Counted from the first letter of the stretch, positions 3,566-53,540 are shown. The stretch is 64,000 nt of DNA from an uncultured Acidobacteriota bacterium (GCA_963776495.1 CAVZMW010000006.1:1045629-1109628), one strand, 5' to 3'. Numbers and translations: made by a program. Notes: generated by a model from the sequence alone, not told the origin.

Positions 3566-3580
3566 ACGGGAAGCGGGGCC

Positions 3581-3660: not shown

Positions 3661-3665
3661 GTTCT

Positions 3666-4540: not shown

Positions 4541-4553
4541 GCCGACGCCTCCC

Positions 4554-4609
4554 TCGAGCCTGAGTCCTGAGCCTTGAGTCTTGAGTCCTGAGCCCCGACC
4601 CCCGAGCCT
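4554..4609. repeat. Heptad repeat array, 8 units
   Basis: tcgagcc tgagtcc tgagcct tgagtct tgagtcc tgagccc cgacccc cgagcct. Lies immediately 5' of the NmrA start codon, in the promoter/5' UTR region. Confidence 0.8.
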
Positions 4610-4703
4610 CATCGTGCCGCATTACGGCCGGGCACTGCAAGGCGCGGGGAGATGTTACAGTAAGGCGAGGTTGCACCCCGACGGTCTCTGAAAGGCGAGC
4701 ACG

Positions 4704-5024: not shown

Positions 5025-5043
5025 GGAAGGAGACGACCTGTCG

Positions 5044-7140: not shown

Positions 7141-7225
7141 CTGGCAACTGGCAGCGGAAGGGCAGCCAGCAGGTGATTCCCGCCGGCTGCCCCCGAAGGT
7201 GAAATCCGCTGTCAACCATCCCGGT

Positions 7226-7260
7226 CCCCGACTACGGACCGTGATCCGCTGACCGCTGAC
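7226..7260. repeat. Heptad repeat array, 5 units
   Basis: Read on the minus strand: gtcagcg gtcagcg gatcacg gtccgta gtcgggg. Lies at the 3' end of the BNR gene, between convergent genes. Confidence 0.55.
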
Positions 7261-10200
7261 TACTGTCCAAACTCATCCTCGAGCACCTCGACCTTCGTGG
7301 CGTAGGTCTTCCCGCCCACCGACAGCGTGGCGAGATAGGCCCCCGGCTCGACGACCTGCCCGCCGAACCCTCCGCGCCCGCCGCCGCCTCCGCGCCCCTG
7401 GCCGCCGGCGACCGGGGTGAGGCGGAAGTCCCACTGCACGCGGTTGAGGCCGGCGGTCTTCGGGGCCTCGAACGTCCTGATCACCTTGCCGGAGTAATCG
7501 CTGATGGTGAGCTTGACGTCGCCGGCCGCCGCGGCCTTCAGGTAGTAGCTGATGGCCACGCCCGGGGCCGGGTTCTCGCCGGCGAAATTCTTCGCGCCGC
7601 CGATCGACCGGCTCAGCGTGATGTCGGTCTTCCACTCGGTCCCCGGCCGCACGTCGAACAGGTGGGCGTCCTCCTTCATCACCTCGTCGCTGAGATCCTG
7701 GAGCGCCGTGATGTCGTCGAGGATGTAGATGCTCCGCCCGTGGGTCGCGACGATGAGGTCGTTGTCCCTCGGGTGCACCATGACGTCGTCGATGCGGACG
7801 GTGGGCATCCCGTTCATGAACCGCTTCCACTCGGCGCCGCCGTTCAGCGAGACGTAGAAGCCGTACTCGGTGCCCAGGTAGAGCAGGTTCTTGCTCTTCG
7901 GGTCTTCCTTGATGACGTTGACGTTGCCGACCGCCGGCAGGTTGCTCGCGAGCGCCTTCCACGTCTGCCCGTAGTCGCGCGTCACGAAGACGTAGGGCTT
8001 CATGTCGTCGGTCCGGTGGCCGTCGAAGGAGACGTAGCAGGTGGCGGCGTCGAAGTGCGAGGCCTCCACGCGCGAAACGTGGGTCTCCTTGGGCACGCCG
8101 GGCACGTTGTCGACCACGTTCTTCCACGTCTGGCCGCCGTCGCGCGACACCTGGACGTTGCCGTCGTTGGTGCCGACCCAGATCACGCCGGGCATGGCCG
8201 CCGACTCGCTGATCGTGACTATGCTGCTGAAGGCGCCGGCGCCGTCGTGCTTGGACGCCATCGGCGCGTCGCCGGGGACGCCCATGATCGGCCGCACGAA
8301 GCGGCTGATGTTCTTCGTCAGGTCGGGCGAGCCCAGGTAGGTGTCGCCCCGGTCGTACGACCGGAACAACTCGTTGGCGCCGATGTAGACCGTCCTGGGG
8401 TTGAACGGCGACAGGAGGATCGGCGTGTTCCAGAAGAACCGGTACTGCGTGCCTTCGGGCGGCGCGGGCAGGATGTTCCCGCGCTGCGCCATGGCGAACG
8501 CCGCCGTCGCCGGGCCGGCCGGTGCGACGGCCGGGGCCTGACCGGCTGTCGCGGCGCCTCCCGCCTGGCCGCGCTGGCCCTGCGGCGGCCGTGCTGCCGC
8601 GGCCGCGCGCGGCTTGATGCTGGTCGGCCGCCCGCCGCGCAGGTCGACGCGCTGCACGGCGCCGTCCTGCGACTCGACGTAGATCGTCGACCAGTCGGTC
8701 GGGTCCGCCTGCGTGTAGAATCCGTCGCCGCCGCCGACGCGGAACCACTCGGCGTTGGTGATCCCCTCGCTGCTTCGCGTGGCGCTCGGGCCGCCCCACG
8801 TGCCGTTGTCCTGCAGGCCGCCGTACACGTAGTACGGCTTCCGCATGTCGGCGCTGATGGCGTAGAACTGGCCGACCGGCACCGTGTTGACGAACTCCCA
8901 GGTGTCGGCCTGGTCGTAGCTGACGTCGAGGCCGCCGTCGTTGCCGATGATGATGTGCTTCGGGTTCTTCGGATCGATCCACAGGGCGTGGTGGTCGGTG
9001 TGTGCGATCCCCTGCACCACCTTGAACGTCTTGCCGCCGTCAACCGACTTGTGGAAGGGCGCGCCGCACGTGTAGACGATCTGGTCGTTGGTCGGGTCGA
9101 CCCGAATCTGGCTGTAATACATCGGCCGATCGTTGTTGTTGCTCATCAGCTTCCAGGTCTTGCCCCGATCGTCCGACCGCCACACGCCGCTCTTCTTGGG
9201 GTCGGGAGGCGGAGGCGGCTGGCCGGCTGCGGCGCCGCGCTGGCCGCCGCCCCCACCACCACCGCCGCCGCCGCGCGCGCCGGCCACCGCTTCCTTGCCG
9301 TCGGGCCCGACGTTCGCGCCGGTGCCGGGCGAGGCGCCGACCTCGATCTGCGCGTAGAGCACGCCGGCCTTCGAGCGGGCCGCCGAGAGGCCGATCCGCC
9401 CGAGCATCCCCTCGGGGAAGCCGTTGCCGGCGATCCGCGTCCAGGACTTGCCGGCGTCCGCGCTCTTCCACACGCCGCTGCCCGGGCCGCCGCCGTTGAA
9501 GCCCCACGGCACGCGGCGCCGCTGGTAGGACGCGGCGTACAGCGTCTTCGAGTCGAACGGGTCGATCACGATGTCGGTGAACCCCGTGTCGGCGTCGATC
9601 ACCTTGACCGCGGTCCACGTCTTGCCGCCGTCGACCGTCTTGTAGACGCCCCGCTCGGGGTTCGGCCCGAACAGGTGGCCGAGGACCGCGACGTAGACGA
9701 TGTTCGAGTCCTTCGGGTCGATGACGATGCGGGCGATCGACTGCGAGTCCTCGAGGCCCATGTGGGCGAACGTCTTGCCGCCGTCGACCGACTTGTAGAT
9801 GCCGTCGCCGAACGACGAGCTCTGGCGGTTGTTCGCCTCACCGGTGCCGACCCACAGGATGTCCGGGTTGCGCTGATCGACGGCGAGCGCGCCGATCGAG
9901 CAGACCGGGTAGGTGTCGAAGATCGGCGTCCACGTGGTGCCGTTGTTGGTGGTCTTCCAGACGCCGCCGGTGGCGAAGCCGATGTAGATGGTCGAGGGGT
10001 CCGACTCGACCACCGCGAAGTCGTCGATGCGCCCGCCCATGCTGGCGGGGCCGATCGAACGGAACCTGAACGCCTTGAGCAGCGGGTCGTCCGACTGGTT
10101 GATCACCGGGCGGGCGGCGGGCGCGGCCTGTGCGGGCGCCGCGGCCTGTGCGGTCGGCGGCGCCTGTGTCGGACGCTGCGGGGCCTGCGCCGCGGTCCCC

Positions 10201-10265
10201 ACCCAGAACAGGGCGAGGCACGAGGCGGTGGCCACGAGCAAGCGGATACGCAATCGTGGAGTCAT
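7260..10265 (-). CDS. Secreted BNR/Asp-box repeat, sortilin (VPS10)-like glycosyl-hydrolase-like protein
   Basis: About 1000 aa with signal peptide (LLVATASCLALFWVGTAAQA). Multiple Asp-box motifs (S.DGG.TW / S.D.G.TW) and a Gly/Pro low-complexity linker. ATG at 10265 is preferred over the TTG at 10292. Confidence 0.8.
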   Translation of the reverse strand: MTPRLRIRLLVATASCLALFWVGTAAQAPQRPTQAPPTAQAAAPAQAAPAARPVINQSDDPLLKAFRFRSIGPASMGGRIDDFAVVESDPSTIYIGFATGGVWKTTNNGTTWTPIFDTYPVCSIGALAVDQRNPDILWVGTGEANNRQSSSFGDGIYKSVDGGKTFAHMGLEDSQSIARIVIDPKDSNIVYVAVLGHLFGPNPERGVYKTVDGGKTWTAVKVIDADTGFTDIVIDPFDSKTLYAASYQRRRVPWGFNGGGPGSGVWKSADAGKSWTRIAGNGFPEGMLGRIGLSAARSKAGVLYAQIEVGASPGTGANVGPDGKEAVAGARGGGGGGGGGGQRGAAAGQPPPPPDPKKSGVWRSDDRGKTWKLMSNNNDRPMYYSQIRVDPTNDQIVYTCGAPFHKSVDGGKTFKVVQGIAHTDHHALWIDPKNPKHIIIGNDGGLDVSYDQADTWEFVNTVPVGQFYAISADMRKPYYVYGGLQDNGTWGGPSATRSSEGITNAEWFRVGGGDGFYTQADPTDWSTIYVESQDGAVQRVDLRGGRPTSIKPRAAAAARPPQGQRGQAGGAATAGQAPAVAPAGPATAAFAMAQRGNILPAPPEGTQYRFFWNTPILLSPFNPRTVYIGANELFRSYDRGDTYLGSPDLTKNISRFVRPIMGVPGDAPMASKHDGAGAFSSIVTISESAAMPGVIWVGTNDGNVQVSRDGGQTWKNVVDNVPGVPKETHVSRVEASHFDAATCYVSFDGHRTDDMKPYVFVTRDYGQTWKALASNLPAVGNVNVIKEDPKSKNLLYLGTEYGFYVSLNGGAEWKRFMNGMPTVRIDDVMVHPRDNDLIVATHGRSIYILDDITALQDLSDEVMKEDAHLFDVRPGTEWKTDITLSRSIGGAKNFAGENPAPGVAISYYLKAAAAGDVKLTISDYSGKVIRTFEAPKTAGLNRVQWDFRLTPVAGGQGRGGGGGRGGFGGQVVEPGAYLATLSVGGKTYATKVEVLEDEFGQ

Positions 10266-10507
10266 CGATTGGCCCTTTCGGTAGAGAGACAACGCTCGGT
10301 TGGCAACTGATATTAGGCGGCATCATACCGCAAGGCCTGGCGACGCGCGCTCCCAGTTCCTCGAGCGCGCACCGGCGGTTGATGGCGCCGTCCACCGCCG
10401 GAAATCCGGCAGCGATCGTGCGCCGCGGGCCGGTCCAGCCAGCCCGGCCGGCGGCGATCCGCTGAATTGGGCTGGATTATCCACGGATTCTCGCGCGGGC
10501 CGGTCGC

Positions 10508-10523
10508 TGGCAACGTGATTGCT
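10508..10523 (+). promoter_or_regulatory. Candidate sigma-54 (-24/-12) promoter
   Basis: TGGCAA-cgtga-TTGCT matches TGGCAC-N5-TTGCW with exact spacing. Lies 109 nt upstream of the cytochrome c start. Confidence 0.45.
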
Positions 10524-10631
10524 TGCAAGTGCTGTCGGACTTCATTACATTCTCGGCATCCAGCTGGACCAGCCGTCCCGTGACCATCCGGACGCCCGGT
10601 CGTCTTCCGGGCGTCGGTGGAGGAATTCTCG

Positions 10632-11093
10632 ATGAGCGGTGCGCTCAAGAACAAGGGGCACCTCGCCCGCATGGCGGGGCTGTTCGTCGTCGGCATCGTG
10701 GCGTTCCTGGTCCTCAGGTGGTGGATGGTGCCGGCCAGTTTCGGCACCTACGGCCATTACCGGGCCGCGGCGCTCGACGACATCCGCGCGCGGCCGATGC
10801 ACTACGCCGGGCGCGCCGCCTGCGAGGACTGCCACGCCGACATCGTCGCCCAGCGCAAGGGAAGCCGGCACGAGCGGATCGGCTGCGAGGCCTGCCACGG
10901 GCCGCTGCTGGCGCACGTGGAGGCCGGCGGCGAGAAGAAGCCGGCGCTGCCCGATACCCGCGTGCTGTGTCCGCGGTGCCATGCCGCCAGCCCGTGGAAG
11001 CCGAAGGGGTTCCCGCAGGTCGTGGTGGCCGAGCACAGCCCCGAGGGACCCTGCACCGCGTGCCACAAGGCGCACGCGCCGAAGATCTCCTGA
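10632..11093 (+). CDS. Membrane-anchored tetraheme cytochrome c
   Basis: Four CxxCH motifs (CEDCH, CEACH, CPRCH, CTACH) and an N-terminal TM helix (LFVVGIVAFLVLRWWMV). ATG 10632 is preceded by ggtggagga. Confidence 0.85.
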   Translation: MSGALKNKGHLARMAGLFVVGIVAFLVLRWWMVPASFGTYGHYRAAALDDIRARPMHYAGRAACEDCHADIVAQRKGSRHERIGCEACHGPLLAHVEAGGEKKPALPDTRVLCPRCHAASPWKPKGFPQVVVAEHSPEGPCTACHKAHAPKIS

Positions 11094-11106
11094 GCCCGGA
11101 GCAGCC

Positions 11107-11877
11107 ATGAATCCCGACCGACGGAAGTTCCTGTTCGACACCGGCAAGCTCCTCGTCCTCACGGCCTCGGCGTCGGTGGCGTGGGAGGCCATCCTCGCCG
11201 GCACGCCCGAGACGGCGCCCAACTACACGATGACCGACCACTGGTGGGGCATGGTCGTCGACATCGAGCAGTGCATCGGCTGCGGCAACTGCGTGCGCGC
11301 GTGCAAGGCCGAGAACGGCGTGCCCCTCGACCCCCGGTTCTTCCGGACGTGGGTGGAGCGGTACCGCGTGGTGCCGGAGGATCTCGAGCACCCGACCGTG
11401 GATTCGCCGAACGGCGGCTACGACGGGTTCCCCGACAAGGGGGGCGCCGACGCCGATCCGACCGCGAAGCACTTCTTCGTGCCCAAGCTGTGCAACCACT
11501 GCGCGGAGTCGCCGTGCACGCAGGTCTGCCCGGTCGGCGCCACCTTCATGAGCCCCGACGGCGTCGTGCTGATCGACCGGGAATACTGCCTGGGCTGCCG
11601 CTACTGCGTGCAGGCGTGCCCGTACGGCTGCCGGTTCATCGACCCGAGGACCGAGACGGCCGACAAGTGCACGCTGTGCTACCAGCGCATCACCAGGGGA
11701 CTGACGACCGCGTGCTGCGAGACCTGCCCGACCGGCGCGCGTCAGCTCGGCGACCTGAAGAATCCGAAGGACCCGATCCACAGGTTCCTGCGCGAGCACC
11801 ACGTGCTCGTGCTGAAGCCGCAGATGGCGACGGGCGCCAAGATCTACTACAACGGCCTCGACGGCTCGGTGAGGTAG
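11107..11877 (+). CDS. Tat-exported 4Fe-4S ferredoxin-type subunit (NrfC/PsrB/DsrO-like)
   Basis: Twin-arginine signal MNPDRRKFLF. Several Cys clusters (CIGCGNCVRAC, CNHCAESPC, CLGCRYCVQACP, CTLC). ATG at 11107 lies inside the longer track ORF 10639..11877. Confidence 0.85.
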   Translation: MNPDRRKFLFDTGKLLVLTASASVAWEAILAGTPETAPNYTMTDHWWGMVVDIEQCIGCGNCVRACKAENGVPLDPRFFRTWVERYRVVPEDLEHPTVDSPNGGYDGFPDKGGADADPTAKHFFVPKLCNHCAESPCTQVCPVGATFMSPDGVVLIDREYCLGCRYCVQACPYGCRFIDPRTETADKCTLCYQRITRGLTTACCETCPTGARQLGDLKNPKDPIHRFLREHHVLVLKPQMATGAKIYYNGLDGSVR

Positions 11878-11893
11878 GAGGCGGAGGACACCG

Positions 11894-13081
11894 ATGGGAA
11901 GCGTGTTGCCGGCGGTCCAGGGGTTCATGTACCCCAACGAGGTGGAGCTCCAGTGGAGCGTCCTCATCGTGCTCTACCCGTACATCACGGGCCTCGTCGC
12001 GGGCGCGTTCATCCTGGCGTCGCTCGAGCGCGTCTTCAACGTCGAGGCGGTCAAGCCGACCTACCGCCTGGCGCTGCTGACCGCCCTGGCGTTCCTCCTG
12101 GTGGCGCCGCTGCCGCTGCAGCTGCACCTCGGCCACCCGGAGCGGTCGCTCGAGATGTACCTGACGCCGCACACCACGTCGGCGATGGCGATGTTCGGCT
12201 TCGTGTACCTCTGGTACCTGATGGTCGTGCTCGTCCTCGAGATCTGGCTCGACTACCGGAAGGAGATCGTGCTGACCTGGCGCGAGTCGCGCGGCGCGAA
12301 GCGCGCGCTCTACGGGGCGATGGCCCTCTGGTACGACAACATCAGCCCCGAGGCGCTCGCGATCGACGACCGGGTGGGCAAGGCGATCACCGTCATCGGG
12401 ATCCCGTCGGCGTTCATGCTGCACGGCTACGTCGGGTTCATCTTCGGGTCGATCAAGGCGAACCCGTGGTGGTCCACGCCGCTGATGCCGATCGTCTTCC
12501 TGTTCTCGGCCATCGTGTCGGGCATCGCGGCCGTCATGCTCGTCTACATGGTGACGGCCTGGTGGCGCGAGCGCCGGTTCGACATGGCGTGCCTCGACAC
12601 GATCGGGCGGTACCTGTTCTACGCGTTCGTCATCGACTTCTCGCTCGAGATGCTCGACCTCATCCACCGCATCTACGAGGCCGACGAGTCGTTCCGCGCG
12701 CTCGACTTCATGGTGCACACCCAGCTGTGGGTGTCGCAGGTGATCGTGCAGATCCTGGTGGGCACGCTCGTGCCGATCTTCATGCTCGGCGCGGTGCAGC
12801 TGCTCCGGATGAGCGAGACGGTCAGGCGGCGGATCTACGCCGTGGCCGGCACGCTGACGCTCATCGGCATCTTCGCGATGCGCTGGAACGTCGTCATCGG
12901 CGGGCAGCTGTTCTCGAAGAGCTTCCTCGGCTACACGGCGTACAAGATGACGTGGGCGACGCGCGAGGGGCTGCTGCCGGCCATCTTCCTGATGATCCTG
13001 CCGCTCGGGATCCTCTACGTGCTCGTGAAGCTGCTGCCGCCGTGGCGGTCGGGGCGACGCGGCGACGTTTCGGTCATGTAG
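11894..13081 (+). CDS. NrfD/PsrC-family integral membrane quinone-interacting subunit
   Basis: 395 aa polytopic membrane protein. It follows the FeS subunit, matching the classic three-gene cytochrome/FeS/NrfD architecture. Confidence 0.8.
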   Translation: MGSVLPAVQGFMYPNEVELQWSVLIVLYPYITGLVAGAFILASLERVFNVEAVKPTYRLALLTALAFLLVAPLPLQLHLGHPERSLEMYLTPHTTSAMAMFGFVYLWYLMVVLVLEIWLDYRKEIVLTWRESRGAKRALYGAMALWYDNISPEALAIDDRVGKAITVIGIPSAFMLHGYVGFIFGSIKANPWWSTPLMPIVFLFSAIVSGIAAVMLVYMVTAWWRERRFDMACLDTIGRYLFYAFVIDFSLEMLDLIHRIYEADESFRALDFMVHTQLWVSQVIVQILVGTLVPIFMLGAVQLLRMSETVRRRIYAVAGTLTLIGIFAMRWNVVIGGQLFSKSFLGYTAYKMTWATREGLLPAIFLMILPLGILYVLVKLLPPWRSGRRGDVSVM

Positions 13082-45327: not shown

Positions 45328-46650
45328 TCAGAGGTCGTCGCTTGGCGAGGTTCTGCCATCCGGCCCGGCACGGTGGAGCATGTCGAGCGGGCTTCGCGGC
45401 GGATTGCGCAACTCCTTGACGACGTGCGTGTAGATCATCGTCGTCTCGACGTTTGCGTGGCCGAGGTATTCCTGGATCTGGCGGATATCGACACCGCTCA
45501 GGAGCAGGTGCGTCGCGAAACAGTGTCGCAGAGTGTGGACGGACACCGGCTTGTGGAGTCTCGCCCGAGCGGCGGCGGCCTTGACCGCCTTCTGGAGAAC
45601 GGATTCGGACAGGTGATGGCGGCGCACCACTCCGGCCCGCGGGTCTGTTGACAGCGTCTGGCTCGGAAAGACCCAGAACCACCCCCATTCGCGGCTGGCG
45701 TTCGGGTACTTCCGGTCAAGGGCTTCCGGCATCCACACGCCTGCCAGGCCGGCCTTGCGATCGGCCCGGTGGAGCGATTCGTTGGCGCGCAGGTGGGCGC
45801 GGAGGGGCTCCCGGCCGGCCTGGGCGAGGAGCGTCGACCGGTCCTTGTCGCCCTTCCCCGCGCGCACGAACACCAGTCCCTGATCGAAGTCGACGTCCTT
45901 TACCCGGAGTTCACAACACTCCGACACGCGGAGGCCGCCGCCGTAGATCAGCCCGGCCATGATTTGTGGGATGCCTCGCATCGCCTGCAGCAAGGCCGCG
46001 GTTTCGGGGACGCTCAGCACGACGGGCAGGCGGTCGCCGCGTTTTGCCCGTGGCGTGAGCGAGAGCCCTTCGGGGGTCAGTCCGACGACCTCCCGGCAGA
46101 GGAACAAGACGGCGCACATGGCCTGGTTTTGCGTGCTGGCCGAGACGTGCCGGTGTGTCGCGAGGTGGGTGAGGAAATCGCGAGCTCCTTCCGGGAGGAT
46201 CTGCGGCTGGGGGCTGTGCTGCTGGCCGCCGAGGTAGTCGAGAAAACGGCGCGCCCAGTCGATGTAAGTGCACTCCGTCCGGTAGGAGTAGTGCCGGGCC
46301 CGGATGCGCGACCGCATCTGCTCCAGCATGGCGAGTGGACCGGCGTGCGCCGGCCCGGCCGCGGCGTCGCGCGCCGTCTGTCGGTGCCAGTCGGTTCGCT
46401 GGAGGAAGTTGACGAAGTAAACCCGGAGCGCCTGTTCGGCTTGTTGGACCTGCCAGTCGGGAACCGCTCCCGACCGCTCCAGGTCGTCGCAGAAGTGGCG
46501 CACCTGGTCGGCGACTGGCTCGTCCACGGCCTGACGAGAGAGGAACTGCCGTACCCACCGGACGAAGTAGGGTGCGGCACTTGGACGCGCCAACTGGCGC
46601 TTCAGGAGGAACTCGGCGAACTGCTGCAGTTGCGACTCGGTTTCCCGCAC
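45328..46650 (-). CDS. intI: Integron integrase with N-terminal extension
   Basis: 440 aa. Tyrosine recombinase motifs GLRVSE, HTLRH.FATHLL, LGH....TMIYTHV. Carries the integron-specific insertion ALDRKYPNASREWGWFWVFPS. About 100 extra N-terminal residues relative to typical IntI. Confidence 0.9.
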   Translation of the reverse strand: MRETESQLQQFAEFLLKRQLARPSAAPYFVRWVRQFLSRQAVDEPVADQVRHFCDDLERSGAVPDWQVQQAEQALRVYFVNFLQRTDWHRQTARDAAAGPAHAGPLAMLEQMRSRIRARHYSYRTECTYIDWARRFLDYLGGQQHSPQPQILPEGARDFLTHLATHRHVSASTQNQAMCAVLFLCREVVGLTPEGLSLTPRAKRGDRLPVVLSVPETAALLQAMRGIPQIMAGLIYGGGLRVSECCELRVKDVDFDQGLVFVRAGKGDKDRSTLLAQAGREPLRAHLRANESLHRADRKAGLAGVWMPEALDRKYPNASREWGWFWVFPSQTLSTDPRAGVVRRHHLSESVLQKAVKAAAARARLHKPVSVHTLRHCFATHLLLSGVDIRQIQEYLGHANVETTMIYTHVVKELRNPPRSPLDMLHRAGPDGRTSPSDDL

Positions 46651-47035
46651 GGCGACCCGTCAGCCAGATGCTGTGCAGACTGGCGGCCGCCCCTCATCCG
46701 ATCGCCCAGGCCCCTGTCCGCACAAGGGTTGTGTCGCAGGGCAGCAGATGAGGCGCGCGCGCCTCCCGTTGCGACGAGGGCGGAGCGCCAACTCCAATTG
46801 CAAGGCGACCGTGCAATAGCCGCCGACTGGCCAACGACGGCAACTGGCGCACTGGGCCGCCGGCGCGATTCCGGCGTCCCGACGACATCCGCCCCTCGCA
46901 ACGTCTTCTTCAGAAAGGCACTTGCTTCTCGGGCTCCCTCGCAGGAGAATCCCCCTCGCCAGGCGTGTCCGGCGTCGCATGGAAACTGCGATTGCCCACC
47001 TGGAACCTGCGGTTCCCGCGTTCTACCTATTGGAT

Positions 47036-47042
47036 GTTAGGC
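47036..47042 (+). other. Candidate attI core (GTTAGGC)
   Basis: This is the first GTTRRRY-type core between intI and the first cassette ORF. It is identical to the R' core of attC 1. Confidence 0.45.
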
Positions 47043-47097
47043 CGTCGAACGTGATGCATTGCGTTCTGTAAATACAGCGTGCATACTTATTACTGCG

Positions 47098-47391
47098 ATG
47101 CGCGACATCCGGTTTGAGTGGGACCCGGCGAAAGCGGCCGCGAACGCCCGCAAGCACGGCGTGACCTTCGAAGAAGCGCAGACTGCGTTCTTCGACGATT
47201 TGGCTCTCGTGATTGACGACCCCGAACATTCGGAAGCCGAGACGAGGTTCGTTCTGTTGGGTCTGAGCGCCGCCGCTCGGATCCTCGTTGTCGTGCATGC
47301 CCACCGTTCGGCTCCCGACACAATTCGGATTATCTCGGCTCGCAAGGCCAGCAGGGCGGAGCGGGTCGGCTACGTGAAGAGGTTCCGATGA
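47098..47391 (+). CDS. brnT: BrnT-family toxin (DUF497)
   Basis: IRFEWDPAKAAANARKHGVTFEEA...IRIISARKA matches the BrnT pattern. ATG 47098 is preferred over the TTG at 47059. Confidence 0.85.
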   Translation: MRDIRFEWDPAKAAANARKHGVTFEEAQTAFFDDLALVIDDPEHSEAETRFVLLGLSAAARILVVVHAHRSAPDTIRIISARKASRAERVGYVKRFR

Positions 47392-47618
47392 GGAAGGAAT
47401 ATGACTTCAGCCGTGCACGACCAAATCCGTATGCGAAACGGCTCAAACGGCCCGTGACGATTCGCCTCGACCAAGCGACTGTCGCGTACTTCAAGGAGCT
47501 CGGAACGGAAACCGGGATTCCGTATCAAACGCTGATCAACTGGTACTTGCGCGACTGCGCGGCATCGAGGCGTCGTCCGACAATGCAATGGGTCGAACCC
47601 AAGAAGGGCGCGGCCTAA
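47388..47618 (+). CDS. brnA: BrnA-family antitoxin
   Basis: YDFSRARPNPYAKRLKRPVTIRLDQATVAYFK...GIPYQTLINWYLRDCA. Overlaps brnT by 4 nt. The stop TAA lies in the attC R'' core. Confidence 0.85.
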   Translation: MRKEYDFSRARPNPYAKRLKRPVTIRLDQATVAYFKELGTETGIPYQTLINWYLRDCAASRRRPTMQWVEPKKGAA

Positions 47619-47685
47619 CAAGCGCTTGCACCCGACGGCGCTCGCTGCGTTGGTCAGGCGCCGCGGGTGAAGCGCATCGTTAGGC
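47613..47685 (+). other. attC site 1 (73 bp)
   Basis: R'' gcctaac and R' gttaggc are perfectly complementary. The inner arms gcgcttgcaccc / gggtgaagcgc pair with one unpaired base. Confidence 0.85.
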
Positions 47686-47707
47686 GGTGCATCGAAGGGC
47701 ATCTGAT

Positions 47708-48445
47708 ATGCCAACTGCTGGAACACCGGGTCGCAAGGCTGTCGAAGCGGCACACATGGGGCGCTTCGAGGCGAACCTAGCCGACGTGGAACGATTGCTG
47801 GCAATCCACCGGGAGATTGCGGGCGGCAGCAAGGGCCGGAAGCACAATGTCGAGGTCCTCAACAAGAGCGGCATCGTGTTGCTTGTCGCCTGCTGGGAGG
47901 CGTTCATTGAGGACTTGGCTGAAGCAGCGTTCGATGCTCTTCTCGAGCACGTGTCGGACCCCGCGACGTTGCCGCCGAAACTACAGACGCAAGCCTCAGC
48001 AGAGTTGAAGTCATCATCGGATGACCGCCGCGTTTGGGAGCTCGCCGGCGACGGGTGGAAGGAAGTTCTGAAACGGCATCGCAGAGAAACATTGAAGCGC
48101 CATCTAAGCTCTTTCAATACGCCAAAGCCTGAACAGATCGATACACTGTTCGAGGATCTCCTCGGCCTTCGCAGCCTGTCGCAGTCCTGGAAATGGCCGC
48201 GGAGCTCGCCTTCGCGGGGAGCAACCACATTGCGCGAACTTGTGGCCCTTCGTGGTTCCATCGCGCATCGGGTGTGCGCCGCCAAAGCAGTCAAGAAGCG
48301 TGATGTGTGGCGAGCCGGCATGTTCCTGATTCGCCTTTCGGTGTGCTCCCACAATCGAGTATTGGAACACCTGAAGCCGTTCACTGGGTTTGCGCCATGG
48401 GACGAGTACGCTCAGCCGAATGAACGTTCAGAGCCTGCCGCCTAA
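47708..48445 (+). CDS. Standalone HEPN-like protein (RiboL-PSP-HEPN-like), putative RNase
   Basis: 245 aa. LNKSGIVLLVACWEAFIEDL and the C-terminal R-x4-H motif (LRGSIAHR) fit my recollection of this HEPN clade. It is the single ORF of cassette 2. Confidence 0.5.
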   Translation: MPTAGTPGRKAVEAAHMGRFEANLADVERLLAIHREIAGGSKGRKHNVEVLNKSGIVLLVACWEAFIEDLAEAAFDALLEHVSDPATLPPKLQTQASAELKSSSDDRRVWELAGDGWKEVLKRHRRETLKRHLSSFNTPKPEQIDTLFEDLLGLRSLSQSWKWPRSSPSRGATTLRELVALRGSIAHRVCAAKAVKKRDVWRAGMFLIRLSVCSHNRVLEHLKPFTGFAPWDEYAQPNERSEPAA

Positions 48446-48511
48446 CCGGCGATTGCAGCCGACGGCGGATGGTGAACCATGGGCCGTCGCGGCTGAATCG
48501 CGATGTTCGGC
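48440..48511 (+). other. attC site 2 (72 bp)
   Basis: R'' gcctaac, central ttgcagccgacggcgg, R' gttcggc. Confidence 0.8.
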
Positions 48512-48574
48512 GGACTGAGCGCGACGCAGAGGCCATGACAGACCACACGACTAAGCGCACGATCTGAAAGACCT

Positions 48575-49375
48575 ATGGACCGCCCGCTCCGGATCTACCT
48601 GTGGCTTGCGTTCGGGATCACGTGGGGCGCCGGCGGCCTGGCGCTGCTCGCCGGCGCCTTCCGGCCGGGTGTGGCGGGTCGGCCGCTGCACCCGCTCCAC
48701 TACGTCGCCGCTTTCGGCCCCTCCATCGCCGGCGTCATCATGGCGGCGGTCACCCGGGGCTGGGCTGGCGTCCGGCACCTCGTCGCCCGCGTCATTCCGA
48801 CCTGGGCCGGCGTGCCGTGGTACGTCGTCGTGCTCGCAGGGTTTCCAGCCGCGAACTTCGTGGCCACTTGGCTCTTCGGATCGGACGCCCTCACGAGACT
48901 TCCATCGTGGGATCGGCTCCTCTGGCTCCTGCCACTCACCTTCGTCGCCGACACGGGGCCGCTTGGAGAAGAGTTCGGATGGCGGGGATTCGCTCTGCCG
49001 CGGTTGCTCAATCGCTGGCGCCCGCTGAACGCTGCGTTGATCCTTGGCGCCATCTGGTTCGCCTGGCACTTGCCCACGTTCTTCATCTCGACGCTGTCGC
49101 AGAGCCAGCTTTCGATCCCGCTCTTCTTCGTGAACAGCTTGGCGCTCAGCATCGTGATGACCTGGCTGTACCTTCGAACCATGGGTGACCTGTTCGCCAT
49201 GATCCTGGTTCACACCATGGCGAACTACTGCGGCGGCATCGGGATCCCGTTCATCGCCGAAGTGAGCGCGGAAGCGGCGCTGGCGGCACTGATCGTGGCG
49301 TGCGGGGGGCTGCGGCCGCCGAACAAGCGTTTGCAGCCGACGGCGGCTGGTGCAATCATGAGCCGCCGCGGCTGA
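48575..49375 (+). CDS. CPBP-family intramembrane glutamic endopeptidase (CAAX/Abi-type)
   Basis: 266 aa polytopic protein with motifs EEFGWRGF, FAWHL and HTMAN. The last ~19 codons read into attC 3. Confidence 0.75.
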   Translation: MDRPLRIYLWLAFGITWGAGGLALLAGAFRPGVAGRPLHPLHYVAAFGPSIAGVIMAAVTRGWAGVRHLVARVIPTWAGVPWYVVVLAGFPAANFVATWLFGSDALTRLPSWDRLLWLLPLTFVADTGPLGEEFGWRGFALPRLLNRWRPLNAALILGAIWFAWHLPTFFISTLSQSQLSIPLFFVNSLALSIVMTWLYLRTMGDLFAMILVHTMANYCGGIGIPFIAEVSAEAALAALIVACGGLRPPNKRLQPTAAGAIMSRRG

Positions 49376-49390
49376 AACGGCACGTTAGAC
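49318..49390 (+). other. attC site 3 (73 bp)
   Basis: R'' gccgaac, central ttgcagccgacggcgg, R' gttagac. Confidence 0.75.
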
Positions 49391-49412
49391 AGACGAAGAA
49401 GAGACACTTTCC

Positions 49413-49853
49413 GTGGAATGGCACCTTCGATCGGCCTCAGCGTCGGATCGCGATTTCCTGTACGCGCTTCATGGCACGACCATGCGCGAGGTTATCGAGA
49501 AGACATGGGGCTGGGACGAGGCGTGGCAACGAACAGACTTCGAGAGGCGCCTTGCTGCATACATGGTATCGATCATCGAAACCAAAAATCGCGCTGCGGG
49601 AAGCCTTTGGCTTGAATGGAAACCAGACTCCTTGTACATCCACGAGATCCAGATCCTACCGGAATTCCAGGGCAAGGGCCTCGGCACGGCAGTCGTCAAA
49701 GGCGTTCTCGAGCAAGGCGCTCGGCGCACGCTTCCTGTCACGCTCTCGGTCGTTCCAGCCAATTCCGGCGCCAAGCGTCTCTACGAGCGACTTGGGTTCG
49801 AGGTAACAAGCGTTGAACCGCCATTCATTCGCATGCGACACCAAGCCCTATAA
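49413..49853 (+). CDS. GNAT-family N-acetyltransferase
   Basis: 146 aa with acetyl-CoA motif Q.KGLG (EFQGKGLGTAVV) and RLYERLGF. Confidence 0.8.
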   Translation: MEWHLRSASASDRDFLYALHGTTMREVIEKTWGWDEAWQRTDFERRLAAYMVSIIETKNRAAGSLWLEWKPDSLYIHEIQILPEFQGKGLGTAVVKGVLEQGARRTLPVTLSVVPANSGAKRLYERLGFEVTSVEPPFIRMRHQAL

Positions 49854-49862
49854 GAAGGTGCT

Positions 49863-49946
49863 GTCTAACCTCGGCTTGGAGTCGTCGCGCCCAGGGTCCT
49901 GTGCGATCATGTCGCCGAAGCGCGCGGCTCAAGCCGGACGTTAGAC
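49863..49946 (+). other. attC site 4 (84 bp)
   Basis: R'' gtctaac and R' gttagac are perfectly complementary. Confidence 0.8.
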
Positions 49947-49972
49947 CGCTGAACCGGCATTGAGATTCGTCG

Positions 49973-50335
49973 ATGGACAATCTGGAAGCAATCGAGATCT
50001 TGGAGCGGGAGTTGGATCTGCTCCGACGGGAGTCGTACGCGGAGTTGACGGGTCGGATCGATCTCCCACCGGTTGTGTGTGACCGCCCCGGGACCGGCGG
50101 CCGGAAGTATCAACTGGAGATTCAGTTCTTCTGGGACGGGAATCGTGGTGGTCACGTTCGGGTGATGGGCTCGATTGACGATGGCGGCTGGCGCGCGTTC
50201 GTTCCAATCACGAGGAGCTTCATCAAGGCGGCCGATGGCTCATTCGTTGGTGAGCAGCACGACTCGAGGCACGACACGCGGTCTAACACGCGGCTGCACC
50301 CGACGGGCGGCAACAACGTGAGCGGCCGCGGGTGA
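49973..50335 (+). CDS. Hypothetical cassette protein
   Basis: 120 aa with no recognised family. The last ~18 codons lie inside attC 5. Confidence 0.5.
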   Translation: MDNLEAIEILERELDLLRRESYAELTGRIDLPPVVCDRPGTGGRKYQLEIQFFWDGNRGGHVRVMGSIDDGGWRAFVPITRSFIKAADGSFVGEQHDSRHDTRSNTRLHPTGGNNVSGRG

Positions 50336-50350
50336 GCCGCAACGTTAGCC
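50281..50350 (+). other. attC site 5 (70 bp)
   Basis: R'' gtctaac, central ctgcacccgacgggcgg, R' gttagcc. Confidence 0.8.
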
Positions 50351-50403
50351 AGCGGAGTGACAGCCTTGCCCGATGCGAGCATCGTGATTACAATGTAGTC
50401 ACT

Positions 50404-50661
50404 ATGGCTACGACAGCACGAATCGTCCGGATCGGGAACTCCCGCGGTATTCGCGTTCCTAAGGCGTTGCTCGAGCAGGCGCAACTGCCCGAAGAGGTGG
50501 AATTGCAGGCCGAGCCGGGGCGGCTGATTGTGCGCGCTGCTCGCCGCACGCGGGCTGGCTGGACGGCGGCCGCAGCGCAGATGCACGCGCGCGGCGATGA
50601 TTCGCCGCTCGACCCCGCAGGCGGGAATCGTTTTGACACAGAGGACTGGGAATGGCGATAG
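50404..50661 (+). CDS. mazE: MazE/AbrB-SpoVT-type antitoxin
   Basis: ATG 50404. IVRIGNSRGIRVPKALLEQAQL is a swapped-hairpin AbrB-type motif. Confidence 0.8.
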   Translation: MATTARIVRIGNSRGIRVPKALLEQAQLPEEVELQAEPGRLIVRAARRTRAGWTAAAAQMHARGDDSPLDPAGGNRFDTEDWEWR

Positions 50662-50990
50662 CGCGCTCCCTGTTCGCGCGCGGCGCAGTCCACCTGGTTG
50701 CCCTCGATCCGACCAAGGGCAGCGAGATCCGCAAGACCAGACCCTGCCTCATCGTGTCCCCGAACGAACTGAACCAGCACCTCCGCACCGTCATCGTCGC
50801 CCCGATGACGACGGGGGGCCATGCGTACCCATGGCGGGTGCCGTGCCGCTTCCAGCGTCGCGCCGGTTATGTGGCGGTCGATCAGCTTCGTACGGTCGAT
50901 ACCGAGCGTCTCGTGAAGCGCCTGGGGAATCTCGATCCAGAAACCGTGAACGAAGTCTTACGTGTTCTGCAGGAGATGTTCGCGGAGTGA
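50652..50990 (+). CDS. mazF: MazF/PemK-family endoribonuclease toxin
   Basis: VHLVALDPTKGSEIRKTRPCLIVSPNELN...VIVAPMTT. Overlaps the antitoxin by 10 nt. Confidence 0.85.
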   Translation: MAIARSLFARGAVHLVALDPTKGSEIRKTRPCLIVSPNELNQHLRTVIVAPMTTGGHAYPWRVPCRFQRRAGYVAVDQLRTVDTERLVKRLGNLDPETVNEVLRVLQEMFAE

Positions 50991-51000
50991 ATCCGACGCA

Positions 51001-51073
51001 GGCTAACACCGCGCTGCACCCGACCGGCGCAGGCGCTGTGGGGAGCGCCGGCGGGTGAGCGCGATCGTTAGAC
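51001..51073 (+). other. attC site 6 (73 bp)
   Basis: R'' ggctaac, central ctgcacccgaccggcgc, R' gttagac. Confidence 0.8.
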
Positions 51074-51080
51074 GCACACG

Positions 51081-51551
51081 ATGGAAGACGAGATCACTCC
51101 GATCCGAAAAGCGGAATCCCTCATGGAGGCTGGCGGCCCGGTCGACGAGTGTCGCGCGACGCTGGCGATCTACGGTGCTGACCTGAGTCCCGATGCTGTG
51201 TCCGGCATACTTGGCTGTTCGCCTTCCCACGCGCACAGGCAGGGTGATCGCAAGAGCCCCACGTCGCCGCCATTTGAGACTGGGGCCTGGCTGCTGACGG
51301 TAGAGACAAAGTCTCCGAAGGGACCGCAGGAGGCAATCTCGGCGCTTCTTGCTCGGTTCCCAGCAACTTCCGAGTTGTGGCAGCCGATTGTCGCCAAGTT
51401 TCGCGTTTCCATTCGGGTTGGAATCCACACCGCTGGCTGGAATCGTGGTTTCGGGCTTTCCCCGGAGCTCCTGAACGCGGTCGGGGGAATTGGAGCTGGA
51501 ATTGACTTCGACTTGTACTTCTATGCTGATGAAACCGACGGTGGCGTCTAA
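51081..51551 (+). CDS. DUF4279-like cassette protein
   Basis: 156 aa. ATLAIYGADLSPDAVSGILGCSPSHAHRQGD fits the DUF4279 N-terminal pattern (L.I.G..L.PD.....LG..P......G) from memory. Confidence 0.5.
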   Translation: MEDEITPIRKAESLMEAGGPVDECRATLAIYGADLSPDAVSGILGCSPSHAHRQGDRKSPTSPPFETGAWLLTVETKSPKGPQEAISALLARFPATSELWQPIVAKFRVSIRVGIHTAGWNRGFGLSPELLNAVGGIGAGIDFDLYFYADETDGGV

Positions 51552-51616
51552 CATGCCGTTGAAGCGGATGGTCGGCCGCAGACGGCCGTCCACCGCTTAA
51601 CGGCAAGGCGTTGGGC
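51546..51616 (+). other. attC site 7 (71 bp)
   Basis: R'' gtctaac, R' gttgggc, inner arms gaagcggatgg / ccaccgcttaac. Confidence 0.75.
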
Positions 51617-51623
51617 GTACACC

Positions 51624-52037
51624 ATGTCATGCGTTATTCGAATAGGCGGAATAGACCTCGACCCGGATGCCTTGCTCGAAGCCTCCGGTCTCTCCGCGTA
51701 TCGAGTCGACCGGAAAGGTGAAATAGACCGGATCAAGAGCCGTGGGCCGATGACCAAGTCGTCCGTCCACGTCGACGTGAGTTCCGCTGGCTTCGACAAG
51801 CTTGGGAACCAGATCAAGGACGCCATGGATTTTCTAGGTGCGAATCGATCCCAGTTGCAGAGCGCGATGGCGTTTCCCGGAGTGGAATGGGCGACGCTTG
51901 ACTTCGCAGTTGAACACGCTGACGTGGCCATCGACTGCAAGTACTTCAACCCTGACTTCCTAGCCGCCGCTGGCAACCTAGGATTGGGCATCGAGATCTC
52001 GATCTATCCGCAGCCAGTGCCACCGGGGGAGAGGTGA
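51624..52037 (+). CDS. Second DUF4279-like cassette protein
   Basis: 137 aa. CVIRIGGIDLDPDALLEASGLSAYRVDRKGE follows the same pattern as the preceding cassette protein. Confidence 0.45.
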   Translation: MSCVIRIGGIDLDPDALLEASGLSAYRVDRKGEIDRIKSRGPMTKSSVHVDVSSAGFDKLGNQIKDAMDFLGANRSQLQSAMAFPGVEWATLDFAVEHADVAIDCKYFNPDFLAAAGNLGLGIEISIYPQPVPPGER

Positions 52038-52038
52038 C

Positions 52039-52101
52039 GCCGAACAAGGCGTTGCAGCGGACGGCGCTTGCGCGCCCCCGCTGAACGCCATACCGTTGGG
52101 C
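52039..52101 (+). other. attC site 8 (63 bp)
   Basis: R'' gccgaac, central ttgcagcggacggcgc, R' gttgggc. Confidence 0.75.
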
Positions 52102-52109
52102 GGACACAA

Positions 52110-52412
52110 CTAGCGCCGACGCCTCCAGTAACCCGGACGCCGCTTGGTATGCGCCACGGCGACGACAATGATCTCGGCCGGCGCTGATCGGTAGACGATC
52201 TGGTAGGGGAAGCGAGGCAACAACAGGCGACGGGTCCGACGGTCGGCCGAAAGCGGAGTCCCCATCTCGGCGGTCGTGGGCAGGCTCTCAATGGACTCCA
52301 CGACGGCTTCGAACAACTCGCGCCCCAATCCCCGACGCCGAGCCTCGTACCATTCGACCGCCTCGGCAAGTTCCTCCGAGGCGTCTGCGTGAATACGAAG
52401 CGTTCGTGTCAC
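52110..52412 (-). CDS. RelE/ParE-family toxin (cassette in inverted orientation)
   Basis: GTG 52412. LRIHADASEELAEAVEWYE...FPYQIVYR...IIVVAVAHTKRRPGYW is typical of the family. Confidence 0.8.
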   Translation of the reverse strand: MTRTLRIHADASEELAEAVEWYEARRRGLGRELFEAVVESIESLPTTAEMGTPLSADRRTRRLLLPRFPYQIVYRSAPAEIIVVAVAHTKRRPGYWRRRR

Positions 52413-52645
52413 TGGCGGCCGAGGCCTCGCTCGACCCGTCGTTTGACCTCTTCCCAAGGCTCGAGTTGGGCAGTGCCTTCCTCGATTTCGGCAACCCGAC
52501 GTTCAATCTCCTGCGCCCACGCAGCTTCCGCGCCGGGATCGCCGGGGCCGTCAAGGCTCGCCAGGAGTTCTGCCGCCAGCTCGGCGCGGGCATCGACCTC
52601 GAGCTTGAGGGCCTCTGCCAGCACGGCCTGTGCTGCTCTGGTCAT
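52409..52645 (-). CDS. Addiction-module antitoxin component
   Basis: 78 aa. L.VDARAELAAELLASLD...AWAQEIERRVAEIEEG pattern. Overlaps the toxin start by 4 nt (GTGA). Confidence 0.75.
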   Translation of the reverse strand: MTRAAQAVLAEALKLEVDARAELAAELLASLDGPGDPGAEAAWAQEIERRVAEIEEGTAQLEPWEEVKRRVERGLGRQ

Positions 52646-52671
52646 GGGACGATTCTACGCTGCAAGTAGCC

Positions 52672-52747
52672 TCCCAACCAACGGCTGCGCCCGACGGCCG
52701 CCGGATTCTGACGCCGCGCGGCCGCGGCTGAACCGCATTCGTTCGCG
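52672..52747 (+). other. attC site 9 (76 bp)
   Basis: R''-like tcccaac, central ctgcgcccgacggccgc, R'-like gttcgcg. More degenerate than the other sites. Confidence 0.6.
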
Positions 52748-52785
52748 CGCATGACCGAGACCCGCCTCACGAGAGGAGTGCGTCC

Positions 52786-53456
52786 ATGAGGAAACTCATC
52801 GTATCGACGTTCGCGTCGCTTGACGGAATCATGCAAGCACCCGGCGGACCGGAAGAAGACCCCACTGGCGGGTTTGCCCTTGGCGGGTGGATGTTCGGCT
52901 ACGCGGACGAGAGCATGGACATCTCCGCATCGGGTTTCGACGGCAAGGACCGCGAATTGGTGCTCGGGCGCCGGACCTATCAGATATTCGAGGCGTACTG
53001 GCCCTATCAGCCGGACGACCACCCGATCGCGAAGACGCTGAATGCCGCGAAGAAGTATGTGGCGTCGCGCACGTTGACGATGCTCCATTGGAACAACTCG
53101 ACCCTGCTCCACGGCGATGTCGTCTCGGCAATCAACGCTCTCAAGGGCCAACCGGGCCCCGACCTGCAACTGATTGGCAGCGGCGATCTGATTCACACAC
53201 GCTTCAGGCCGCCTCGCTGATCGACGAGTACAACGTGTGGACGTTTCCAGTGGTACTCGGGCGGGGCAAGCGCCTCTTCAGCGAAACTGCCAGGCCATCG
53301 GCGCTGCGACTCGTTCGCTCTCAGGTGTCGCCCACCGGCGTGGTGATGAGTACCCATGTACCAGGCGGCGATATCCAGCCCGGTTCGTTTGCGAGTGCCG
53401 AGCCGAGCGAGAGGGAGTTGGCCCGACGCAAGCAGATGGCGGATGAGCTGTGGTGA
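52786..53456 (+). pseudogene. Dihydrofolate-reductase-family (RibD C-terminal-like) cassette gene with apparent frameshift
   Basis: The N-terminal part MRKLIVSTFASLDGIMQAPGG...GSGDLIH is in one frame. The remainder TLQAASLIDEYNVWTFPVVLGRGKRLF... is in the frame of track ORF 52887..53456. The junction is at the (CA)3 tract at 53194-53200. Confidence 0.75.
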
Positions 53457-53469
53457 TGTGAAGAGGACA

Positions 53470-53540
53470 GTGCGCGCGGACGCGCTGCACCCGACCGGCG
53501 CACGTGTCATCGTGAGCGGCGGCGGGAATGAGCGCCGCCC
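53470..53540 (+). other. Degenerate terminal attC-like remnant
   Basis: Contains the conserved attC centre gcgctgcacccgaccggcgc and a partly complementary ggcgggaatgagcgcc. No recognisable RYYYAAC/GTTRRRY cores. Abuts the stop of the next chromosomal gene. Confidence 0.45.

Follow-up and report, generated by a model that had tools for sequence, protein, structure and literature searches.

Introduction

The HEPN_RiboL-PSP family (PF18735), described as "Ribo L-PSP-HEPN", is distantly related to AbiF/AbiD (Anantharaman et al. 2013, PMC3710099). Its name derives from fusions with the L-PSP endoribonuclease, and its members are also found in operons with ParB (PMC3710099); the 2013 description gave no link between this family and integrons (PMC3710099). 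In the HEPN layout set out in that study, an R-x4-6-H motif ends helix 3, an acidic residue lies in helix 2, and inserts between helices 2 and 3 are frequent (Anantharaman 2013, PMC3710099). According to one review, ApeA, PD-T4-2, PD-T4-5, and PD-T7-3 have PF18735 as their HEPN domain (PMC10952713).

Recent work has demonstrated that compact anti-phage genes occur in integron cassettes, and those that have been tested come almost all from Vibrio or from clinical mobile integrons. Defence by a single HEPN cassette of an integron has already been reported, for other HEPN families. Esos, a cassette of the V. cholerae chromosomal integron, is a HEPN-only single gene with anti-phage activity (bioRxiv 10.1101/2024.07.02.601686), and its authors place it with systems having domains for growth arrest or cell death on infection (bioRxiv 10.1101/2024.07.02.601686). 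HNPBCG_15845, from an integron cassette of V. mimicus, is an AbiU2-type HEPN protein, predicted to form a dimer, that gives resistance to T4 and T7 (bioRxiv 10.64898/2026.03.17.712381). Finally, the "Integron cassette HEPN" family (PDB 3JRT) has been proposed to be a stress RNase and is restricted to Gammaproteobacteria (Anantharaman et al. 2013, PMC3710099).

The restraint of single-protein HEPN effectors has been described in two systems of particular relevance here. DARNA (PD-T7-3) is a monogenic HEPN anticodon nuclease with its R-x4-H site at the HEPN dimer interface (bioRxiv 10.64898/2026.02.22.705581). It works without an antitoxin. The site is kept closed by a loop, and once phage SSB-bound ssDNA has activated it, the enzyme cuts tRNA anticodon loops (bioRxiv 10.64898/2026.02.22.705581). 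The protein is 456 aa in length, possesses a large C-terminal ssDNA-sensing domain, and assembles into dodecamers (bioRxiv 10.64898/2026.02.22.705581). AbiF/AbiD (Pfam Abi_2) is a single-protein toxic abortive-infection effector that is paired with an RNA antitoxin, the RCd22/abiF motif (PMC12373285).

Here, we describe a computational analysis of a gene cassette in a 64,000-nucleotide stretch of DNA, hereafter the window, from an uncultured Acidobacteriota bacterium (GCA_963776495.1, CAVZMW010000006.1:1045629-1109628). A sequence-only reading of the window had proposed that this cassette encodes a stand-alone HEPN-like protein, a candidate toxin or anti-phage effector. We present evidence that the gene belongs to the RiboL-PSP-type HEPN family, that it constitutes a complete integron cassette with space for nothing else, and that its relatives recur as one-gene cassettes in many phyla. 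Furthermore, we weigh how the activity of such a protein could be restrained.

Results

A stand-alone HEPN_RiboL-PSP protein

The gene lies at 47708-48445 on the plus strand and is an intact, full-length open reading frame starting at an ATG; its product has 245 aa, as the sequence-only reading had stated. Upstream of it is a 22-nt leader, GGTGCATCGAAGGGCATCTGAT (47686-47707, plus strand), in which an AAGGG located 8 nt before the ATG is a possible Shine-Dalgarno/ribosome-binding site. An alternative GTG start at 47687 would add 7 aa upstream of the ATG; the ATG is preferred, since in homologues 8-15 residues precede the first conserved position and the AAGGG is 8 nt away. An antisense open reading frame at 47680-48384 (234 aa) was rejected as a gene and is read as an antisense reflection of the kind that GC-rich genes commonly show, all homology being on the plus frame. 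The GC content of the HEPN gene is 59% and its GC3 is 67%, compared with a GC3 of 83% for the integrase gene of the same integron (see below), a difference that suggests a foreign origin.

The proposed resemblance to the RiboL-PSP-type HEPN clade was borne out by profile search. The protein matches Pfam HEPN_RiboL-PSP (PF18735) with 60.3 bits (gathering cut-off 28.4; E 3.1e-16), and residues 24-203 align with positions 3-174 of the 191 in the model. The second Pfam match, HEPN_MAE_28990, is weak and sub-threshold. Abi_2 gave no match at E<=1 and AbiU2 gave none, which distinguishes this RiboL-PSP protein from the AbiU2-type HNPBCG_15845; a scan against NCBIfam returned noise only. PADLOC-DB v2 yielded zero families at E<=1, and the catalogued PF18735 systems (ApeA, PD-T4-2, PD-T4-5, and PD-T7-3) are thus not matched here through PADLOC, which may not hold all four.

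The family to which the protein belongs is large. A word-indexed search recovered 335 homologues at E<=1e-3, and among the matches listed PF18735 is a precomputed assignment in all 120 homologues, nearly all of which are 220-245 aa. An exhaustive search recovered 1031 clusters (50% identity) at E<=1e-3, of which 633 reach E<=1e-10; among the 150 clusters listed, most are single-domain proteins of ~215-245 aa, accompanied by some fragments and a few longer proteins. Ten longer members were scanned for fusion partners, and these contained no L-PSP domain and a single Sigma70_r4 tail. On the strength of the Pfam E-value (3e-16), the 335 homologues, and the 1031 clusters, a chance match to HEPN is ruled out at the level of sequence comparison. 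The cassette protein itself is a single domain without an L-PSP fusion. It differs in this respect from the members that gave PF18735 its name: the subfamily described here is stand-alone, ~230 aa in length, and lacks both the L-PSP fusion and the ParB operon. These associations account for the family's name and have no say in Pfam membership.

The gene is the second cassette of an integron array

An integron integrase gene, intI, is located at 45328-46650 on the minus strand, divergent from the cassette array. Its longest open reading frame encodes 440 aa and matches NCBIfam TIGR02249 with 382 bits (cut-off 265) as well as Pfam Phage_integrase and Phage_int_SAM_4. The family model spans residues 107-424; the preceding ~105 aa represent an extension, unless the start was mis-called. 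From the sequence, we read an attI recombination core, GTTAGGC, at 47037-47043 (plus strand), which marks the start of the array and is directly followed by cassette 1.

The boundaries proposed for the HEPN cassette, 47686-48511, were confirmed by the two attC sites that flank it. attC1, which belongs to cassette 1 and forms the upstream bound, extends from 47613 to 47685 on the plus strand (GCCTAAC...GTTAGGC), with a predicted hairpin of -46.8 kcal/mol and a covariance model score of 86 bits. attC2, the site of cassette 2, lies at 48440-48511 on the plus strand (R'' GCCTAAC...GTTCGGC) and scores 74 bits with covariance model R1, which was built from the attC sites of the window. Both sites fold as imperfect hairpins of the attC type, and an alignment of eight attC sites from the window has compensatory changes in 13 of the 19 predicted stem pairs. 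Further sites are found at 49318-49390, 49863-49946, 50281-50350, 51001-51073, 51546-51616, 52039-52101, and 52672-52747, bringing the array between 47613 and 53535 to nine full sites and one partial site (53482-53535).

Cassette 2, the second after attI, is therefore 826 nt long and consists of the 22-nt leader, one open reading frame, and attC2. The TAA stop codon of the HEPN gene (48443-48445) falls inside the R'' core GCCTAAC of attC2. This arrangement leaves no room in the cassette for a partner gene or a non-coding RNA, in agreement with the earlier proposal that no partner lies within the cassette boundaries. The other cassettes encode BrnT/BrnA (cassette 1), a CPBP/Rce1-like membrane protease (cassette 3), a GNAT acetyltransferase (cassette 4), a 120-aa protein without assigned identity (cassette 5), MazE/MazF (cassette 6), a DUF4279 protein (cassette 7), a 137-aa protein without assigned identity (cassette 8), a ParE toxin on the opposite strand (cassette 9), and a RibD_C-like protein (cassette 10). 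The GC content of the array is 62.5% and that of its flanks is 68-70%. A promoter and terminator scan of 46300-48700 detected no promoter-like site, a result of little weight in a GC-rich host.

The composition of the array bears on one explanation of the gene, namely that it is an orphan toxin, constitutively toxic, that is neutralised in trans by an MNT-type nucleotidyltransferase (as in HepT/MntA), by another protein, or by an RNA (as in AbiF). HEPN toxins with protein (HepT/MNT) or RNA (AbiF/RCd22) antitoxins are well documented, and the array carries three toxin-antitoxin cassettes, BrnTA, MazEF, and ParE. Several observations speak against such an arrangement. Apart from attC, only 22 nt of cassette 2 are non-coding. 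Cassette 2 differs from the HEPN-MNT (HepT/MntA) modules in holding one open reading frame, with no adjacent MNT antitoxin gene, and a Pfam scan of the array proteins matched no nucleotidyltransferase family. An Rfam search of the whole window gave no match at the gathering score, and between 47000 and 49000 there was no match at E<=1, including the abiF motif. Thus, while the RiboL-PSP clade is distantly related to AbiF/AbiD in the 2013 classification (PMC3710099), the cassette 2 protein is unlike AbiF/AbiD in having no Abi_2 match, no abiF RNA near its gene or in 11 homologue loci, and no space in the cassette for a non-coding RNA. Moreover, a cassette that moves singly and needs an unlinked antidote would kill its new hosts. 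Together with the neighbourhoods of the relatives (see below), these points make an orphan toxin improbable.

The catalytic motif is invariant across the family

The R-x4-H catalytic motif, R182-G-S-I-A-H187, is encoded at 48251-48268 on the plus strand and is placed at the C-terminal end of a predicted helix (residues 168-187) that corresponds to HEPN helix 3. The protein had been said to end in this motif; LRGSIAHR in fact occupies residues 181-188, and 58 residues follow it before the C-terminus. The other peptide that had been quoted, LNKSGIVLLVACWEAFIEDL, is likewise present, at residues 51-70 (47858-47917, plus strand). It constitutes the helix-2 motif and contains the invariant E64 and the near-invariant E68 and D69, which together represent the conserved acidic position of HEPN helix 2.

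Conservation was assessed in three alignments, of 36 close homologues (A1), of 120 close homologues (A4), and of 57 representatives at 30-43% identity (A5). R182 and H187 are invariant in all three. The invariant set of A4 comprises E64, E68, D69, G116, W117, P139, W163, R182, G183, and H187, and it shrinks in A5 to E64, W117, R182, and H187. Among 80 genomic homologue loci (see below), R-x4-H is kept in 77; one of the three exceptions is frameshifted (L022), and the other two (L041 and L081) are contigs in which the matched region ends before the motif. The conservation of Arg and His among homologues, on which the HEPN assignment had been made to depend, is thus complete in the alignments.

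These data also bear on the idea that the protein is a non-catalytic HEPN binder of RNA or nucleotides, or that the gene is a decaying cassette without current function. Some HEPN families are indeed inactive binders (Table 1, PMC3710099), and the frameshifted homologue L022 is located in an integron. The invariance of R182, H187, and E64 over more than 1000 sequence clusters and down to 30% identity, the full-length open reading frame in the window, and a confidently predicted fold (AlphaFold2 pLDDT 92) argue strongly in the other direction, and we regard an inactive protein as very unlikely. The product of cassette 2 is probably an active, autonomous HEPN RNase.

A predicted helical, tryptophan-rich insert between HEPN helices 2 and 3

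An AlphaFold2 monomer model built on the 120-sequence alignment is all-helical, with a mean pLDDT of 92 and a pTM of 0.89. The modelled helices span residues 15-38, 49-81 (containing E64, E68, and D69), 168-187 (with R182 and H187 at its C-terminal end), and 197-226. This order of helices fits, as far as the model is concerned, a HEPN domain whose helices 2 and 3 are separated by an insert. In the AlphaFold2 secondary structure the insert is helical and comprises ~86 residues, 82-167 (47951-48208, plus strand); residues W110, G116, W117, N137-T138-P139, W161, and W163 within it are conserved in the family. The cassette 2 protein shares with PF18735 a score above the gathering threshold, the R-x4-H motif, the helix-2 acidic residue, and, in the model, a HEPN-like helix order with the helix 2/3 insert. 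We propose, as speculation by analogy with DARNA, that the insert could be an RNA-binding, sensing, or gating module.

The HEPN fold was not confirmed by direct comparison: Foldseek of the model against the PDB gave no match at E<0.001 and nothing below E 0.38, where the matches were non-significant helical noise. The best match in BFVD was weak, to a MAE_28990-like HEPN phage protein (E 0.12, probability 1.00, TM 0.50/0.57). Searches of all PDB chains with the A1 and A5 profiles at E<=10 returned unrelated proteins and no HEPN chain; by this measure, the PDB appears to hold no detectable solved structure related in sequence to the cassette 2 family. While the cassette 2 family and the 3JRT family both include HEPN domains borne by integron cassettes, these searches indicate that they are different families at the sequence level.

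Relatives recur as one-gene integron cassettes in many phyla

The survey of homologue neighbourhoods that had been suggested was carried out on 80 homologue loci, one per species-level genome, from many phyla. The attC covariance model derived from the window (R1) was iterated once to give R2, and all 80 loci were searched. Matches to attC were present in 23 of the 80 loci, and in 19 an attC lies within 160 nt of the HEPN gene, always on the strand of the gene. Over all attC matches, 100 of 102 are on the gene's strand, the other two mirroring strong plus-strand matches; this bias serves as an internal control against false-positive attC. Seven loci (L024, L040, L042, L047, L052, L072, and L073) have attC on both sides of the gene. 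These doubly bounded cassettes are 769-840 nt in length; the part aligned with the query is preceded by 34-44 nt and followed by 6-55 nt, and flanks this short indicate that each holds one gene, as in the window. Integron integrase homologues occur within 6 kb in L042 and L022. In L093, a closer metagenomic relative (55% identity), an attC is found 13 nt past the stop codon.

Cassette-borne members are 35-50% identical to the query, a range which indicates that they are spread across the family rather than confined to one clade. The attC-cassette relatives come from Acidobacteriota, Planctomycetota, Verrucomicrobiota, Lentisphaerota, Thermodesulfobacteriota, Beta- and Gammaproteobacteria, and other groups. 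About a quarter of the species-level relatives thus appear, from their sequences, to be one-gene attC cassettes in the expressed orientation (attC within 160 nt in 19 of 80, on both sides in seven). The absence of any Vibrio locus among the 80 relatives kept argues against a close relationship with Esos; the two resemble each other, when compared by description, in having one gene per integron cassette and a HEPN-like domain as the sole recognisable feature. With HNPBCG_15845 the cassette shares its monogenic HEPN organisation, defence having been shown for HNPBCG_15845.

To identify partners, all open reading frames of at least 60 aa within 4 kb of the gene in the 80 loci were clustered by blastp. 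No cluster of non-overlapping open reading frames is common to more than four of the 80 loci, and an MNT nucleotidyltransferase gene, absent from cassette 2, is no recurrent neighbour either. Similarly, neither an L-PSP nor a ParB partner was seen in cassette 2 or as a conserved neighbour in the 80 loci. Antisense clusters overlapping the HEPN homologues were rejected as neighbours and, as in the window, read as reflections of the sense frame, which is conserved and lies in GC-rich DNA. Small open reading frames adjoining four non-integron homologues were also rejected as partners, each being specific to its locus and without a Pfam match. An Rfam search of 11 non-integron homologue loci found tRNA genes only. 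With respect to the orphan toxin considered above, the fact that neither an MNT gene nor another conserved neighbour appears in the 80 loci, the lack of an abiF motif or other Rfam match near the gene (and, in the 11 homologue loci, of anything except tRNA genes), and the position of attC next to the gene in 19 of 80 species-level loci across many phyla all count against an antidote supplied in trans.

Outside integrons, relatives are found in diverse settings. One homologue (L085) is beside Mrr_cat, PIN, RelE-HTH, and HicA genes; another (L084) shares an island with a tyrosine integrase, AAA_25, and BrnT; a serine recombinase is near a third (L088), and a tRNA gene is 190 nt from a fourth (L020). 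Two homologues, L086 and L090, are among ordinary metabolic genes. In the present analysis, non-integron neighbourhoods of the Mrr_cat/PIN/RelE/HicA type, islands with integrases or recombinases, tRNA-adjacent positions, and plasmids were counted for a role as conflict effector.

These settings bear on a stress-response or dormancy RNase, which would trim or cut host RNAs under stress, for example upon SOS activation of the integron, and slow growth. This role was proposed for integron-cassette HEPN proteins by Anantharaman et al. 2013 (PMC3710099), and it is consistent with the absence of a PADLOC match and with L086 and L090, which are surrounded by housekeeping genes and have no defence or mobile-element neighbours. 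The patchy distribution and foreign base composition, the recurrence in attC cassettes (19 of 80 loci as a raw count), and the defence and toxin-antitoxin-type neighbours in L085 fit conflict systems better, and HEPN-only cassettes tested elsewhere acted against phage. We consider a stress RNase unlikely, though the most serious of the alternatives.

Searches of mobile element collections by tblastn recovered nothing from 50,697 phage records; among 72,556 plasmid records, only 6 had a match. In two P. aeruginosa plasmid copies (on plasmids of 169 and 462 kb) the gene stands alone between genes of the opposite strand, and attC was not found near either of the two copies inspected. No E. coli record is among the plasmid matches, although PD-T4-5 is reported to be plasmid-borne in E. 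coli. The scarcity of phage and plasmid matches was counted for a defence directed against plasmids or other mobile elements rather than phage, in which the RNase would rid the cell of conjugative plasmids or keep them out, for instance by degrading RNA primers or transcripts, as has been proposed for Ishtar. Ishtar is monogenic, bears a HEPN domain, causes plasmid loss, and can occur in integrons. It has other HEPN families (DUF4145 and DUF3644), however, together with a C-terminal domain that is absent here, and the data do not separate a plasmid from a phage target. An anti-plasmid role is in our estimation about as improbable as an orphan toxin.

Discussion

We favour the view that cassette 2 encodes a latent, single-protein HEPN RNase acting as a monogenic defence or conflict effector, and we put the probability of this reading at roughly 55%. 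Under this explanation, a ribonuclease of the RiboL-PSP HEPN clade would be carried by integron recombination as a self-sufficient unit. Two subunits would pair via their HEPN domains, and their two R-x4-H motifs would form one composite RNase site (PMC3710099; bioRxiv 10.64898/2026.02.22.705581). The enzyme would be produced in a latent state and tolerated when expressed from the integron promoter, until a cue from a phage or another mobile element opened the RNase site. Taking DARNA's occluding loop as a guide, we would place the gate, speculatively, in the Trp-rich stretch of 86 residues that separates helices 2 and 3. Once active, the enzyme would cleave tRNA or mRNA, and translation would stop, leading in turn to growth arrest or abortive infection.

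The sequence-only reading had raised the question of how the activity of a lone HEPN protein is restrained. A cassette moves singly into a naive host, where it comes under the control of the integron promoter, and the protein must therefore be tolerated alone. Tolerance of the protein alone favours intrinsic latency over an antitoxin, and restraint would then be by autoinhibition. DARNA may serve as the best working model for the restraint of a lone HEPN protein, with the difference that the cassette 2 protein has 245 aa and an internal insert instead of a C-terminal sensing domain. The published anti-phage HEPN-only cassettes (Esos and the AbiU2-type HEPN of V. mimicus) were counted, along with DARNA, as precedents. 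The points counted against a latent defence RNase were the absence of a PADLOC match, the absence of a significant Foldseek match in the PDB, and the location of L086 and L090 among metabolic genes.

In the searchable literature we found no experimental work on the stand-alone RiboL-PSP HEPN family and no report of a RiboL-PSP HEPN recurring as an integron cassette far outside Vibrio. The finding is solid and testable, and it is somewhat broader than what had been proposed from the window sequence; it will not surprise specialists. If the protein turned out to be no more than a stress RNase, the finding would be of modest interest.

A cassette with one gene is a natural test of self-sufficiency, in that function and restraint must both fit in 245 residues. 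The family of cassette 2 is a candidate addition to the catalogues of defence systems. It is tempting to suppose, although we hold this wider view only tentatively and give it somewhat less than even odds, that stand-alone RiboL-PSP HEPN proteins of ~230 aa are widespread, uncatalogued monogenic immune RNases passed between phyla by integrons, in which the Trp-rich insert is a built-in sensor or gate replacing an antitoxin. If this were true, no smaller HEPN defence unit that regulates itself would yet be on record, and this one would be without a solved structural relative. The cassette 2 gene would offer a small and easily cloned system in which to study the restraint and the triggering of a lone HEPN RNase.

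Contents and limits of the cassette array

The integron array that carries the HEPN gene occupies positions 47038-53535 of the window and comprises approximately ten cassettes, three of which encode toxin-antitoxin components. These are a BrnT/BrnA cassette (47059-47618), a MazE/MazF cassette (~50351-50990), and a cassette encoding a ParE toxin (52110-52457), which is carried on the strand opposite to the array and whose antitoxin is presumably encoded upstream of it on that same strand. Products of the remaining cassettes include a membrane protease of CPBP/Rce1-like type, a GNAT acetyltransferase, a DUF4279 protein, and a RibD_C-like protein; family matches were also sought for two further cassette proteins, and none were found. 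Downstream of the RibD_C-like gene, the covariance model built from the window's attC sites matches a partial site at 53482-53535 (model positions 11-62, 30 bits), which may represent a decayed array terminus. Beyond position ~54000 the GC content of the window returns to 69-70%.

The integron integrase ORF (45328-46650, minus strand) is 440 residues in length, and family models span only residues ~107-424. The first ~105 residues may be a genuine N-terminal extension, or the ORF may have been called too long, in which case a later start would leave a gap of ~700 nt between intI and attI.

Neighbours and a domain fusion among relatives of the HEPN gene

Defence-type genes adjoin homologues of the HEPN gene at two non-integron loci, L094 (3676-5141) and L085 (6751-7890). 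The neighbouring genes at these loci encode a SMODS nucleotidyltransferase together with a DUF6602 protein, a protein with a weak match to GIY-YIG nucleases, and an Mrr_cat restriction enzyme, and both loci look like small defence islands. A longer family member of 312 residues, P0254, carries a Sigma-70 region 4 helix-turn-helix fused C-terminally to its HEPN_RiboL-PSP domain, an arrangement that hints at DNA binding or autoregulation in some relatives.

Integrons at homologue loci

The homologue locus L022 lies on a 986-kb contig (JAUJPC010000001.1) of a MAG labelled Actinomycetota, with regions of note at 1342-2276 and 2644-12435. This locus contains at least eight attC sites and an integron integrase homologue broken across two reading frames, and its HEPN gene is frameshifted. 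Integrons have seldom, if ever, been reported from Actinomycetota in earlier surveys; the locus could be an unusual integron in decay or a binning error.

Dense arrays with uniform attC lengths are typical of large sedentary chromosomal integrons. Two further homologue loci possess such arrays, each surveyed within ~12.6 kb: L073 (CAVVKW010000004.1, Verrucomicrobiae), with 21 attC matches of very uniform length (~126 nt), and L024 (DASVQI010000041.1, Pyrinomonadaceae), with 17 that are likewise very uniform at ~102 nt. Both arrays come from phyla in which integrons have received little attention.
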